NCBI RefSeq assembly: GCF_053078305.1
Contig: NZ_CP166879.1
Strand: one strand, 5' to 3'
Length of the DNA stretch: 64,000 nt
The stretch's first letter is position 1. Every line of letters starts with the position of its first letter. The notes beneath the pieces were generated by a model. The model was given only the letters and a program-made list of their open reading frames with translations. It ran no database searches and was not told where the DNA came from. Of this stretch, positions 4,100-64,000 are shown one piece after another. Both the position numbers and the translations under genes were made by a program.

Positions 4100-5472
4100 T
4101 GACCACGCGCCTGACTCGCTGGCTAACCACGCTGGATAACTTTGAAGCCAAAATGGCGCAGTTGCCTGCGGTACGTCGCTACGGGCGATTAACTCGCGCT
4201 ACCGGGCTGGTGCTGGAAGCCACCGGATTACAATTGCCGCTCGGCGCAACCTGTGTCATTGAGCGCCAGAACGGCAGCGAAACGCACGAAGTAGAAAGCG
4301 AAGTCGTTGGCTTTAACGGTCAACGGCTGTTTTTAATGCCGCTGGAGGAAGTCGAAGGTGTCCTGCCCGGCGCGCGTGTTTATGCCAAAAACATTTCGGC
4401 AGAAGGGCTGCAAAGCGGCAAGCAGTTGCCGCTCGGTCCGGCGTTATTAGGTCGCGTTCTGGACGGCAGCGGTAAACCGCTCGATGGCCTGCCCTCCCCC
4501 GATACGACGGAAACCGGTGCGCTGATTACCCCGCCATTTAACCCGTTGCAACGTACACCGATTGAACATGTGCTGGACACCGGCGTGCGCCCAATCAATG
4601 CCCTGCTTACCGTTGGGCGTGGGCAGCGTATGGGGCTGTTTGCCGGGTCCGGCGTTGGTAAAAGTGTGCTGCTGGGGATGATGGCACGTTACACCCGCGC
4701 CGATGTCATTGTCGTGGGTTTGATTGGTGAACGTGGGCGCGAAGTAAAAGATTTTATTGAGAATATCCTCGGTGCCGAAGGGCGTGCACGATCAGTGGTG
4801 ATTGCCGCTCCGGCGGATGTGTCTCCGCTCCTGCGAATGCAAGGTGCCGCCTATGCCACGCGCATTGCCGAAGATTTTCGCGATCGTGGTCAGCATGTGT
4901 TGCTGATTATGGACTCCCTCACCCGCTACGCGATGGCCCAGCGTGAAATTGCGCTGGCGATTGGCGAACCACCCGCCACCAAAGGTTATCCACCGTCGGT
5001 GTTTGCCAAATTACCGGCACTGGTCGAGCGTGCCGGAAATGGCATTAGCGGCGGCGGCTCGATTACCGCGTTTTATACCGTGCTTACTGAAGGCGATGAC
5101 CAGCAGGACCCCATTGCAGACTCCGCGCGGGCGATCCTCGACGGTCACATTGTGCTGTCTCGCCGACTGGCGGAAGCCGGGCACTATCCGGCTATCGATA
5201 TTGAAGCGTCGATCAGCCGCGCAATGACGGCGTTGATCAGCGAGCAACATTACGCGCGAGTGCGCACCTTCAAACAGCTGTTGTCGAGTTTTCAGCGTAA
5301 CCGCGATCTGGTTAGCGTCGGCGCGTATGCCAAAGGCAGCGATCCGATGCTCGACAAAGCCATCGCCCTGTGGCCGCAGCTGGAGGGCTATTTGCAACAA
5401 GGCATTTTTGAACGCGCGGACTGGGAAGCGTCTCTCCAGGGGCTGGAGCGTATTTTCCCGACAGTGTCATAA
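4099..5472 (+). CDS. fliI: flagellum-specific ATP synthase FliI
   Basis: 457-aa ORF with Walker A GSGVGKS; recognised FliI. Confidence 0.95.
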
Positions 5473-12771: not shown

Positions 12772-12858
12772 AAATCCCGACCCTGAGGGGGTCGGGATGA
12801 AACTTGCTTAAGCAAGAAGCACTTAAAAAATTCGTTACACCAGGAAATCTGATGTGTT
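12772..12858 (-). ncRNA. dsrA: DsrA small regulatory RNA (Hfq-dependent; known to activate rpoS and repress hns translation)
   Basis: Minus strand reads AACACATCAGATTTCCTGGTGTAACGAATTTTTTAAGTGCTTCTTGCTTAAGCAAGTTTCATCCCGACCCCCTCAGGGTCGGGATTT, matching DsrA from memory, with terminal hairpin and U-tract. Confidence 0.88.
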
Positions 12859-21261: not shown

Positions 21262-21358
21262 TATACCTTTTTATTATTCTGTGTCATGATGCTTCCGTTA
21301 TTAGCCTTTTATCGTCTTGTTTATATTTTTTGGGCCGGCATGATGCCGGCTTTTTTTT
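21262..21358 (+). ncRNA. candidate small RNA ending in a strong intrinsic terminator (possibly RseX, recalled to lie between yedR and yedS)
   Basis: GCCGGCATGATGCCGGC hairpin plus T8 at 21337-21361 in the AT-rich yedR-yedS intergenic region, no ORF upstream; 5' end not defined. Confidence 0.3.
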
Positions 21359-60353: not shown

Positions 60354-60599
60354 TTACATCATCATGTCGCTGTCAGGTGTGGGGTCACCGCCATCTGAAG
60401 CACTCCCCTCACCCGCGATACCTTCCGGCTCCGGAACTGCCGGTGCGCCCAGCAGTTCATCCAGAATGGCATCCACTTCTGCATCAAGACGCGCCTCAAG
60501 GTTCTGGCGGAGTTTCTGTTTCAGTGCGCTCAGGACTTCTTCAGAGCGCAGGACTTCCTTCACTGCCTCTGCAGTGACCAGGGATGTAATTTCTGACAT
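60354..60599 (-). CDS. hypothetical small acidic protein
   Basis: ORF 60354..60773; start at [30 protein letters not shown] (81 aa); no family recognised. Confidence 0.4.
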
Positions 60600-60969
60600 G
60601 GGATTTTCTCGTCGAAAGGTGTGATTAAGAAAGTTGCAGCTAAATGAGCGGCTCTTCGGGTTTGCTTCCGGCTGACTGACTGGCGCTGATTTTCTCTGCG
60701 GCCCTTTTATCAATCTGCCTGCGCCAGAAATCGCGCACTGCCCTGTACCCACCCGAAAGAAGATACAGCACACAGACCGCCGTACAGAAGTACAGCATTA
60801 ACTGGTTCAGAAATGTCATGGTTTCTCACCGTGATAGTTGACATGATTTACTTATTTTTGTAGAAAAACACCGCAGACTTCGGTGTCATCATGGTCGTTT
60901 TACCAGCCGCCAGCATTCATGTAGTGGACACAGTTCATCCCTTTCCTTCATTGCTGGCGGCCTTTTTTA

Positions 60970-62937
60970 TCATGCCGCGGCGTCCGCGTTGTTCACTTCC
61001 ACCTTCACACTGTCAATCAGCAGCGTATATGTCGCCGCCTTTGATATGCCTGTCAGTTGCAGTTTGTCCGCCGCCCCTGATGCCGGAGATTTCACCAGTG
61101 TGAACGGTGTACCCCGTTTCTCATCCAGTACCGGCGTCACCTGAATGCTGTTGTTTCCGGCAAACTCAAAAGCCAGTGTGTGCCATCCGTTATCAAAGAC
61201 CCCGAACGTATCCAGCTTCGCATTCTGCTTCTTGTGGTACATCGCGTTCAGGTTCGTCGCATCCGTCTGCAGGAAGAAGGACATCAGCATGTCGTTGCCT
61301 TCCTCTGCCAGCGTCACTCCCTCCGGCAGGGACGACAACTGCCAGTAAATACCCAGGGCAAACTGATTCGGCACCAGTGCGCCCGGCACCTTAAACCGCA
61401 CGCTCACACGTCCGCCTTTCTTCAGCAACTCTGCCCCCTTCCCGGCGGCATCATGCTCCAGAAACCAGATGTGGCTTTCCGGTTTGTTCAGTTGCAGGGC
61501 CTTACCACCGGTGGCACCCTCATCACTGACCACGGCCTCAGCGATGTTTTTATCAACACTGTCTCCGCTCGCCGGTTTGTGATAATAGCGCCAGCCCTGT
61601 GATGCCAGGTCTTCACCGGACGCCAGCAGACTCATCAGGGTTCGGTTACTGACCGGGGCTTCCGGCTCTCTCTCCGGGCCTTCACCGGAAGGTCCGGTGG
61701 GCTTCACCGTATCAGGCTGTTTTCCGGTAATGAATTCAGCGGTTCTCCCGGCATGCACCAGAATCGCCGTTGCCAGACGGTCGGAAATAATCCCACGGCG
61801 AGCCCATGAACTGAAATGGCTGGCCCTGTCCACAGATGTCCAGGTCTTCTGGTCATTACGCCACTTTGAACCGTAATAACCGACGGCTTCCAGGTCCGGG
61901 TCTTCTGCCGGGTCATTGGTCTGCACATTCGCACCATTCTCATCCGTCATTAACGGTACAAAGAAAATGTTCTGCGACTCCTTACCCTTATACCCTCCGT
62001 ATACTGATGCATACCCTTCCGCATGACGCTGCTTCCAGAAATACGTTGTGTCCCCGCAAATCCACGGTACCGCTGATGCGCTGCCTCCTGTGCTCTGTGA
62101 TGCCTGACCGGCAAGCTCCGTTCTGAACTGATTCACCATCGCACTAAACAGCCCCGGATGCTGCGCATGCGTCCCCACTGCCGCATCACCTTCTCCCTGC
62201 ATCCACACCACCGCAAGCAGACGGTTTTTCGGGTTCTTCGCCAGTGCGGCTTTAGTCCGGCTCACCAAATCCTGATACAGCGGCTTACCCACACCCCAGC
62301 GCAGTGAATTTTCCGATGCACCGGCTGATTCGTTGTATGTGCCGTCTGCACCCGTTGTGAATGCCGAAGCACCACGGCAGCACGGAACCAGCAGAATGCC
62401 CGCATTCGCCGGTATAAACGGCAGCAGTTTTTTGGCGATATGCAGCCCCTGCCCCACGGTTCCGTACTGCCCCTTTGACAGGTCCGCTTTCGGATGGTTA
62501 AGACGGCTCATGTCCTGCACATCATGCAGACAATGGTCCGCCGGAATAATGTCGTTATACTTACAGGCGGCACCGCCCGGTGTCACCGTACTGCGACGCG
62601 CCAGCTGCTTAATACGCGGGTCCGGACGGTCATATGTCTCCGGCAGCGGAAGGCCTTCACCATACGACATGCCGTTTGACTGCCCTGCCAGAACCACAAC
62701 AAAGTAATACTCCGGGTCGCTGGTGGCGCTGATTACTGTGCCTTCTCCATCCGACGGCTTCACCACCACAGGTGTGGTGACATCACCTTCCGCCGCAATG
62801 GCCTGCATCAGGGTATAAGGCGTGATGGCCACCGGGCTGCCAAATGGCTGCCACCCCTCCTTCAGTTTTTGAGTCAGTCGCTCCGCAAGGTCTGACGGCG
62901 ACGCCGCCCTGACCACGTCATAGTGTTTAAATGCCAT
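60970..62937 (-). CDS. prophage sialate O-acetylesterase (NanS-p-like)
   Basis: 655-aa ORF: N-terminal domain MAFKHYDVVRAASPSDLAERLTQKLKEGWQPFG (recalled as DUF1737-like), catalytic motif VVLAGQSNGMSYGEG, C-terminal beta-rich domain; upstream of the lysis cassette. Confidence 0.85.
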   Translation of the reverse strand: MAFKHYDVVRAASPSDLAERLTQKLKEGWQPFGSPVAITPYTLMQAIAAEGDVTTPVVVKPSDGEGTVISATSDPEYYFVVVLAGQSNGMSYGEGLPLPETYDRPDPRIKQLARRSTVTPGGAACKYNDIIPADHCLHDVQDMSRLNHPKADLSKGQYGTVGQGLHIAKKLLPFIPANAGILLVPCCRGASAFTTGADGTYNESAGASENSLRWGVGKPLYQDLVSRTKAALAKNPKNRLLAVVWMQGEGDAAVGTHAQHPGLFSAMVNQFRTELAGQASQSTGGSASAVPWICGDTTYFWKQRHAEGYASVYGGYKGKESQNIFFVPLMTDENGANVQTNDPAEDPDLEAVGYYGSKWRNDQKTWTSVDRASHFSSWARRGIISDRLATAILVHAGRTAEFITGKQPDTVKPTGPSGEGPEREPEAPVSNRTLMSLLASGEDLASQGWRYYHKPASGDSVDKNIAEAVVSDEGATGGKALQLNKPESHIWFLEHDAAGKGAELLKKGGRVSVRFKVPGALVPNQFALGIYWQLSSLPEGVTLAEEGNDMLMSFFLQTDATNLNAMYHKKQNAKLDTFGVFDNGWHTLAFEFAGNNSIQVTPVLDEKRGTPFTLVKSPASGAADKLQLTGISKAATYTLLIDSVKVEVNNADAAA

Positions 62938-63132
62938 GAATCCTCCCGGTCGGGATAATGTTGTGAGTCAGATAAGGGGCGGGCTGAAGTCCGGAAGTTA
63001 CAGGACAATGACAGAAGGAAGACTACAGCCCGCAATACGAAAAAGGCCGCGCAGTTGCGCAGAGTGATTACTGTCGGGTATTATTCGCCAGCTGAAAAAT
63101 TGATTACTTCACGTTTTGTTGTTTATTCCTTG

Positions 63133-63833
63133 CTGCCCGCATCTCACCATGCGGGCTTTTTTTATCCATAAGAAAGCCCCTCCGGAGAGGGGCTGGAGTA
63201 GCGCTATGTACCGTTCATTGCATGATGCCGGGTGCCTCCCGGTGAGTTCAGCCCGGTGCCACCGAACCCGCGTCATTCTCGCTAACGATCATCAGAGACC
63301 ATACCGTACACCAGCCGCCCCTCCGCACAGGGGGATTCATCATGCAGAAATTTTTTAACAAATTCTCAGTCGGGAAGACAACCTTCAACTGACTGAATTG
63401 TGAGCAACATAGCATTTAACGGGGAACCTGTTTTCTGCAGTAAAAAGGCCCACCGGAGCGGACGGGCCTGGAAGGATAGCGGTCATGTGATGCCGGTTTC
63501 CCGGTAACTCAGCACCGGTATCTGAGTCAACGTTTTCTCTACTGGGTCATTTCCGATACGCCCTGCCTGCTGACAGGCTTTCATCACATCTGAAAATATA
63601 GCACCCTGACTGATACTGTAGTACCCAAGGTTCCAGAAACTGTGATGTATCCGGCACAGAAAAGCCCCTCCGGAGAGGGGCTGACGCTGCGTATCTGTAT
63701 CATCATGCGCATGGTGCCGGGTGCCTCCCGGTGAGTTCAGTATCAGCACCTGAACCCGCACAGAAAGGATAAGGGATGTAACCAAACACCTGTCGCTGAT
63801 ATGCCCCTCCGCTCAGGGGGATTCACCATGCCA
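63133..63833. repeat. imperfect direct repeat (two copies, period about 488 bp) of a hairpin-rich element upstream of the esterase gene
   Basis: Shared blocks gcccctccggagaggggc (63176 / 63664), ccgggtgcctcccggtgagttcag (63228 / 63716), cagggggattca(t/c)catgc (63319 / 63806); additional hairpin plus T7 at 63133-63158. Confidence 0.8.
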
Positions 63834-64000
63834 GTTTCTTTTAACAAACTCCCCGCAAATCAGACAACTGTCAACCGTCTGAATTGTGAGACATTTAAAA
63901 TTTTCGGGGCAACAGGAAGACAATCATCACGACACCGGCAACCAGCGACCGGCACCAGATTTAACGTATGTGCACACAACCTGAACCGGCATCAAAAAAC

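Follow-up and report, generated by a model that had tools for sequence, protein, structure and literature searches.

A predicted array of STnc100-type small RNA genes, faced by a fourth convergent small RNA gene, upstream of a prophage esterase gene

Our findings indicate that the hairpin-rich element lying upstream of a NanS-p-type esterase gene, between positions 62938 and 64000 of the window (the whole stretch of 64,000 nucleotides that was analysed), represents an array of three small RNA (sRNA) genes of the STnc100/EcOnc27/PasD family together with a fourth sRNA gene that opposes them. The initial annotation had offered small structured RNAs as one of several readings of this element, and that suggestion has held up through two above-threshold STnc100 matches, a diverged paralogue and compensatory changes in the helices. 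The array is real, yet it is largely ordinary, as it consists of a known RNA family at its usual address, and the main gain is one of annotation, whereby an odd-looking repeat is explained by a curated RNA family. The arrangement of the units as a trio and the middle unit, unit B, are modestly new, and no description of either was found in the literature searched.

The element was originally described as a core of roughly 170 bp present in two copies with a period of about 488 bp, each with perfect hairpins, plus an extra hairpin followed by seven T residues. All of these features are present. The GCCCCTCCGGAGAGGGGC hairpin occurs at 63176-63193 and 63664-63681, the CCGGGTGCCTCCCGG hairpin at 63228-63242 and 63717-63731, and a third hairpin, CCCCTCCGC(A/T)CAGGGGG, at 63318-63334 and 63804-63820, with the direct-repeat families placing the copies 486-489 bp apart. 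The actual repeated unit, however, is larger than the proposed core, comprising approximately 260 bp made up of an upstream block of about 60-85 bp and an RNA of about 175 nt, and the two copies are in fact accompanied by a third, diverged copy situated between them. The interval holds three head-to-tail units, referred to here as A, B and C, that follow one another at a distance of about 240 bp on the minus strand and share a single orientation, that of the late operon, with the esterase and lysis genes:

63654-63860, minus strand: unit A, a canonical STnc100-family sRNA gene (RF02076 match of 134.9 bits, E = 3e-31, model positions 1-206)
63440-63613, minus strand: unit B, a diverged STnc100-like sRNA gene (RF02076 score of 28.5 bits, fold and spread)
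63164-63427, minus strand: unit C with its upstream block, a canonical STnc100-family sRNA gene (RF02076 match of 168 bits)

Assignment to the family is based on the Rfam model of STnc100, RF02076, for which the curated gathering threshold is 47 bits. Units A and C are canonical STnc100/EcOnc27 members, the match to unit C extending over 63374-63164 (E = 1e-39, model positions 1-206). Unit B scores below the threshold (E = 5e-4 in a search of 1.2 kb), as do its copies at other loci, which reach 30 bits, and it is a diverged relative or paralogue of STnc100 rather than a member by the Rfam criterion. That the repeats lie beyond chance follows from the two Rfam E-values of 1e-39 and 3e-31 and from the abundance of terminator-like sites, a consensus scan of 62800-64000 having returned 8 such sites versus 1.2 +/- 1.2 in shuffled sequences. 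The RF02076 model accounts for the whole repeat, which counts against the proposal that the repeats are degenerate tRNA remnants. Genes for tRNA-Ile, tRNA-Arg and tRNA-Arg do lie in the same operon about 1 kb further upstream, outside the window, but ARAGORN detects no tRNA gene in 58000-64000, nor does Rfam match one between 62800 and 64000 at E <= 1, and we give decayed tRNA genes virtually no credence as the source of the repeats.

The predicted RNAs and the intrinsic terminators with which they end are as follows:

63831-63658, minus strand: predicted RNA of unit A, 174 nt from the proximal start (motifs and fold)
63682-63663, minus strand: intrinsic terminator of unit A (consensus scan)
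63590-63442, minus strand: predicted RNA of unit B, 149 nt (motifs and fold)
63469-63446, minus strand: intrinsic terminator of unit B (consensus scan)
63345-63170, minus strand: predicted RNA of unit C, 176 nt (motifs and fold)
63194-63175, minus strand: intrinsic terminator of unit C (consensus scan)

The RNAs follow a common plan in which a closing helix surrounds three to four hairpins and is succeeded by a single-stranded linker of about 15-30 nt and the intrinsic terminator. An alignment of 13 units, drawn from the window and from other loci, yields a consensus with an 8-bp closing helix, the hairpins and the terminator, and double-sided changes that keep the pairing are found in 6 of the 34 predicted pairs. 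The fold of unit A matches this consensus structure, and the MFE fold of unit B, computed for that unit alone, arrives at the same plan with a different sequence (closing helix, three hairpins, single-stranded linker and terminator). Unit B exists as two natural lineages that are 91% identical; hairpin 1 and the terminator are preserved between them via compensatory changes, and the linker, GACCGCUAUCCUUCC, and the -10 region are identical. The linker sequence differs from unit to unit, reading GCAUGAUGAUACAGAUACGCAGCGUC in unit A and AAUGAACGGUACAUAGCGCUACUCC in unit C, and in the unit alignment this putative seed is less conserved than the scaffold, which is nearly invariant even in the loops GGGAGGCACCC and GAAUCCCCC. 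Most Hfq-dependent sRNAs display the reverse pattern, with the seed conserved above the scaffold. A scaffold that is more conserved than the putative seed makes a sequence-specific function conceivable, and the structured scaffold may thus have a role of its own.

The presence of an intrinsic terminator in every unit on the late-operon strand lends partial support to the earlier idea of duplicated late-transcript terminators. These terminators, however, are the sRNA genes' own, and the late promoter and its terminator are found elsewhere, directly after Q and approximately 3 kb upstream of the units. A duplicate of the late promoter or Q-utilization site was also considered and rejected, as no shared sequence was apparent by eye in the after-Q regions of locus L001 and phage 933W, and antitermination sites, another of the initial suggestions, found no support.

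In most units an AUG located three bases into the RNA opens a reading frame beginning M(V/M)NPPxRRG, which raises the question of whether the units encode a short peptide (M-V/M-N-P-P-x-R-R-G...) from this codon. In EDL933 one copy has a ribosome-coverage ratio of 3.2, though coverage is low for most of the copies in that strain (PMC5331693). No Shine-Dalgarno sequence precedes the AUG, and the frame ranges in length from 7 to 53 codons, with similarity confined to the first 9-10 codons, which are those that form the closing helix and hairpin 1. Moreover, some units have ATA in place of ATG and carry a compensating change on the opposite strand of the helix. The lack of a conserved length, in combination with this compensation in the helix partner, indicates that selection acts on pairing and not on coding, and we consider a peptide product to be very improbable.

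Each unit also appears to possess its own promoter, predicted to be of the sigma-70, extended -10 type. The corresponding region of unit A is the following:

63832-63913, minus strand: block preceding the RNA of unit A (conservation among 46 distinct upstream regions; direct repeat D1, shared with unit C)

Among these 46 regions the block proceeds in the order TTAAAT...CTCACAATTCAG...GTTGAC-n-G-TTG(T/C)CTG, followed by about 12 variable bases, TTTGTTAAAA, 6-7 bases and GCAUGG, with conservation of TTG(T/C)CT, an 18-nt spacer and TGtTAAAA placed 7 nt before GCAUGG. In unit A the elements are TTAAAT (63898-63893), CTCACAATTCAG, TTGACA, a -35-like TTGTCT (63867-62) and an extended -10 TGtTAAAAG (63846-38); unit C has a -35-like TTGTCT at 63381-76 and an extended -10 TGtTAAAAA at 63360-52, and unit B an extended -10 TGcTATATT at 63603-63595. 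The geometry of the -35 and extended -10 elements would place the start of transcription at the G of GCAUGG (63831 in unit A and 63345 in unit C), a position with which the reported 5' end of PasD2, discussed below, coincides (PMC8550237, Table S6). The northern bands of EcOnc27, the member of the family in 933W and Sp5, are nevertheless about 235/247 nt in size versus the approximately 172 nt expected from the proximal promoter. This raises the possibility that transcription also starts close to the TTAAAT box, which lies about 55-60 nt before the proximal start, or that the RNA is processed from the upstream mRNA.

The block of about 35 nt before the -35 element of the canonical units, which contains TTAAAT, CTCACAATTCAG and GTTGAC (63868-63913 and 63382-63427, minus strand), is absent from PasD-type units. 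This CTCACAATTCAG...GTTGAC block may be a second promoter responsible for the 235/247-nt EcOnc27 isoforms, part of a longer isoform, or a protein-binding site. Also within it is CUCACA, which has been reported as the motif targeted by the PasD seed, though this may be a coincidence. The family has ties to virulence-relevant loci, with EcOnc27 adjoining stx2 and two variants in its promoter region, at +90 and +103 downstream of stx2B, being reported as features predictive of haemolytic uraemic syndrome (PMC12711010). By our own coordinate conversion these two variants fall within 4545-4558 of the 933W locus (L086), in or adjoining the extended -10 element TGTTAAAAAAATTTC of the STnc100/EcOnc27 unit.

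The surroundings of the array are those of a lambdoid late operon, in which it is bounded by two genes:

60970-62937, minus strand: NanS-p-type esterase gene, 655 aa, downstream of the array (ORF; Pfam DUF1737, SASA and DUF6645)
63961-64000, minus strand: last 13 codons of a SAM-dependent DNA methyltransferase gene, stop codon at 63963-63961 (100% identity to L001 7001-7040)

NCBIfam returned almost nothing for the esterase and lysis proteins, and the esterase was identified via Pfam; its homologue is annotated as a SASA family carbohydrate esterase. The interval had been described as lacking any ORF, which is correct for 62938-63960 and incorrect for 63961-64000, as the latter is the 3' end of the methyltransferase gene, a CDS annotated at L001 6045-7040. 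A locus that is 100% identical and extends past the window edge is carried by FHI_NMBU_11, where the gene order is Q, a hypothetical gene, a DNA methyltransferase gene, tRNA-Ile, tRNA-Arg, tRNA-Arg, the SAM-dependent DNA methyltransferase gene, the array, the esterase gene, DUF1378 and DUF826 genes and a holin gene. The SAM-dependent DNA methyltransferase gene occupies the moron position that is held by stxAB in Stx phages. Downstream of the esterase gene, minus-strand ORFs at 58567-60331 resemble a lysis cassette, comprising a possible holin (60062-60331) and a possible Rz-like ORF (58567-59040) with an embedded ORF (58608-58814), assigned by eye and from the annotation of similar loci, as well as an endolysin-like ORF (59524-60057) with a weak NCBIfam endolysin match; a 59-aa ORF is found at 60640-60819. 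Elsewhere in the window Rfam identifies the core-genome sRNA genes dsrA (12772-12858, minus strand, 102.5 bits) and rseX (21268-21357, plus strand, 97.7 bits), which reveals that the window spans E. coli chromosome adjoining the prophage.

The placement of the array is one that the family shares widely. In the 80 viral loci compared, the units share the strand of the late operon and sit in the late region, after the moron and before the esterase and lysis genes. In phage 933W an STnc100/EcOnc27 unit with the same helices, terminator and orientation is found between a moron gene, stx2B, and the nanS-p esterase gene, and the gene order equals that of the window locus, with stx2AB in the methyltransferase slot and the same leader following the unit. 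The two loci differ in that 933W has a single unit, which is faced by AsxR, whereas the window has three units in tandem, and in that the linker of EcOnc27, its presumed seed, is unlike those of units A, B and C. STnc100 is known also as EcOnc27 in Sp5 of O157 Sakai and as sRNA103 in EDL933, and it is for this homologue that CRAC and northern data exist and that binding to Hfq has been established (PMC12711010). The EcOnc27 northern probe aligns to the linker of the 933W unit, and the Hfq crosslink site corresponds to hairpin 4, the linker and the terminator. EDL933 expresses STnc100 copies without induction, and northern analysis has confirmed one of these, STnc100_4 (PMC5331693); a validated target of any canonical STnc100 was not found in the literature searched.

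PasD1 and PasD2 of EPEC E2348/69, which are homologues of EcOnc13, resemble the units in overall architecture, in promoter geometry and in their GCAUGGUGAAUCC 5' end. PasD2 is located directly upstream of an esterase gene and is itself a sub-threshold match to the STnc100 model, at 41.4 bits, and a common ancestor of PasD and STnc100 has been proposed (bioRxiv 10.64898/2026.05.13.724894). PasD is bound by Hfq in RIL-seq and uses the linker adjoining its terminator as the seed. The PasD seed, UGUGAG, is nonetheless absent from the units, the linkers of which are unlike those of PasD, and the PasD copies are reported never to be in tandem, being separated by a minimum distance of 74 kb versus about 240 bp between the units. 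A BLAST comparison of PasD2 with the window gave no match at E <= 0.01, and the presence of PasD or PasA themselves in the window was rejected on the basis of negative BLAST results. A further precedent is offered by lambda 6S RNA and StxS, in which a promoter, a short structured RNA and a strong terminator are passed by Q-modified polymerase. The units have this same promoter-RNA-terminator plan on the late-operon strand, but 6S and StxS belong to the late promoter directly after Q, where the sequences of L001 and 933W are unlike the unit promoters or RNAs.

The extra hairpin and its T run, which had been taken as part of the repeated element, are present but belong to a separate RNA on the opposite strand, and the leader that this RNA overlaps contains a further terminator-like site:

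62978-63164, plus strand: convergent sRNA gene of the EcOnc08/21/42 type (94% identity to the EPEC PP6 sRNA locus, probe match and terminator)
63047-63062, minus strand: terminator-like hairpin CTGCGCAACTGCGCGG followed by CCTTTTT, in the esterase leader (consensus scan)

The sequence from 62938 to 63175 is 94% identical over 238 nt to the E2348/69 PP6 locus of E2348C_1409.E2348C_1408.IGR, a 182-nt Hfq RIL-seq sRNA of EPEC that is homologous to EcOnc08/21/42, and the EcOnc08/21/42 northern probe aligns to 63053-63087 with two mismatches. The hairpin and T run form the terminator of the convergent RNA (63135-63163) and are directly preceded by a likely seed, CCUUGC. This is complementary to GGCA(A/G)GG, the target motif of the EPEC sRNA, whose partners include cfa, dppA and tir. 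The likeness to EcOnc08/21/42, found in Sakai Sp4, thus comprises sequence identity, terminator, CCUUGC and a position and orientation just upstream of a large late gene; the homologues depart from the window by a few substitutions in the terminator loop and beside the seed, and E2348/69 PP6 has only a fragment of an STnc100 unit beside its copy. Convergent sRNA genes at the moron site have been described for many Sakai prophages (Tree et al. 2014; PMC4104026, section 13). The AsxR/AgvB class (RF02703, RF02702), which likewise combines a conserved scaffold with a variable seed, fills this convergent slot across from the STnc100 unit in both 933W and locus L026. These RNAs were rejected as candidates for the convergent RNA, since Rfam matched neither family between 62800 and 64000 at E <= 1, nor anywhere in the window at the gathering threshold; the same models do find AsxR in L026. 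The convergent RNA here is of another family.

The convergent RNA runs towards unit C, such that the two terminators stand back to back, and it is antisense to the esterase leader. Its 5' end is uncertain, with homologues reported at 182 nt and, for EcOnc08/21/42 in Sakai, at about 271 nt, and an isoform of the longer kind would be expected to reach the esterase ribosome-binding site. A promoter-like site on the plus strand at 62931-62959 (ATGCCA, a 17-nt spacer and GATAAT) overlaps the esterase start codon and is directed away from that gene; the plus-strand sRNA could be transcribed from this candidate promoter, which might also interfere transcriptionally with the esterase gene. On the other strand, the hairpin at 63047-63062 constitutes the fourth terminator-like site along the late transcript, and it is conserved both in the 933W leader and in E2348/69 PP6.

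In light of these observations we think it likely that the interval is a cluster of four sRNA genes at the moron boundary of the late operon of a lambdoid prophage, operating in the manner described here. The proposal sets out from family membership, structure, promoter and terminator motifs, synteny and distribution, and draws on characterized relatives for expression of these copies, dependence on Hfq, the position of the seed and Q read-through. In the lysogen the units would be transcribed independently and end at their own terminators, as the expression of STnc100 in uninduced EDL933 suggests. The products would be Hfq-binding, trans-acting sRNAs by analogy with EcOnc27 and PasD, and the variable linkers beside the terminators would act as seeds in the manner of PasD, presenting several seeds on one conserved scaffold. 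With such a variety of seed types on a single scaffold, one prophage could supply several regulators that act on host genes. Stray transcription would additionally be kept from the esterase and lysis genes by the four successive terminator-like sites, and after induction RNA polymerase modified by Q and coming from the late promoter would read through them. Read-through of terminators by Q-modified polymerase after induction is an established part of lambdoid biology.

It is also conceivable that the main action of the units is in cis, whether by forming an array of terminators or insulators or by serving as a structured element of the late transcript that affects Q-modified polymerase, RNA processing or stability, and that the sRNAs are by-products. 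The late-operon strand carries four terminator-like sites in about 640 bp, which would be in keeping with such a function, as would a position between moron and esterase/lysis genes that is fixed across phages and a scaffold that stays nearly constant, loops included, as the linker varies. This last pattern, though, also typifies the neighbouring AgvB/AsxR class, each unit has a conserved promoter-like motif of its own, and members of the family are discrete RNAs in uninduced cells that are bound by Hfq and pair with mRNAs. We therefore regard a predominantly cis-acting array as unlikely, and favor the cluster of trans-acting sRNA genes.

The description of the element as duplicated is misleading with regard to its origin. 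Units A and C are just 77% identical, and each has closer relatives, at 90-96% identity, among single units in other prophages, which rules out a recent duplication in situ and suggests that the array was assembled from diverged paralogues. In the trio variant of L026, the first unit carries the linker type of the last one and vice versa. A census of the compared loci, mostly 80 viral contigs encoding the esterase, gives one canonical unit in 49 loci, two in 12 (including seven A-B-C trios) and four or five in 3, with the number of units upstream of the esterase gene ranging from 0 to 5. About 350 complete E. coli genomes have at least 80% of the whole interval, and of 5426 such genomes 672 (~12%) contain unit B, 342 of them at an identity of at least 99%. 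Unit B is unannotated in the sampled records and was flanked on both sides by canonical units in all five intact contexts sampled. The trio is found in four settings, namely after the methyltransferase gene, directly after tRNA genes, before iraM and in phage PhiR5_2.

The divergence of units A and C from one another relative to their similarity to units elsewhere, the exchange of linker types in L026 and the variable number of units might all be expected if the array were a neutral by-product of lambdoid prophage recombination at moron-boundary sequences, with at most one unit being of consequence. Against this, all three units retain an intact promoter motif, all helices and the terminator, the structure of unit B has been preserved through compensatory changes, the trio recurs in four gene contexts, and unit B has the broad and often nearly identical distribution reported above; we hold a neutral origin to be decidedly improbable. 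A more specific proposal, to which we attach a small but real chance, is that the STnc100-B-STnc100 trio is a selected cassette, in which unit B has a regulon of its own or the scaffold has a sequence-specific job. In the first case unit B, with a linker that does not vary between its two lineages, could be an sRNA not described before; in the second, the scaffold might serve as a binding site for a protein or for RNA polymerase and influence the late transcript in cis, and multiplication of the units would tune the gating of the esterase and lysis genes.

Variants of the arrangement were noted at several other loci. In 675SK2 (L085) and B20127 (L089) the STnc100-B-STnc100 trio adjoins iraM, an anti-adapter protein gene on the opposite strand, and the esterase gene of these prophages is truncated. 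Arrays larger than that of the window are also seen in IMG/VR contigs: in L027 Rfam locates three STnc100 units in a row just ahead of the esterase gene, with another about 2 kb upstream, and BLAST suggests similar or larger arrays in L028 and L030.
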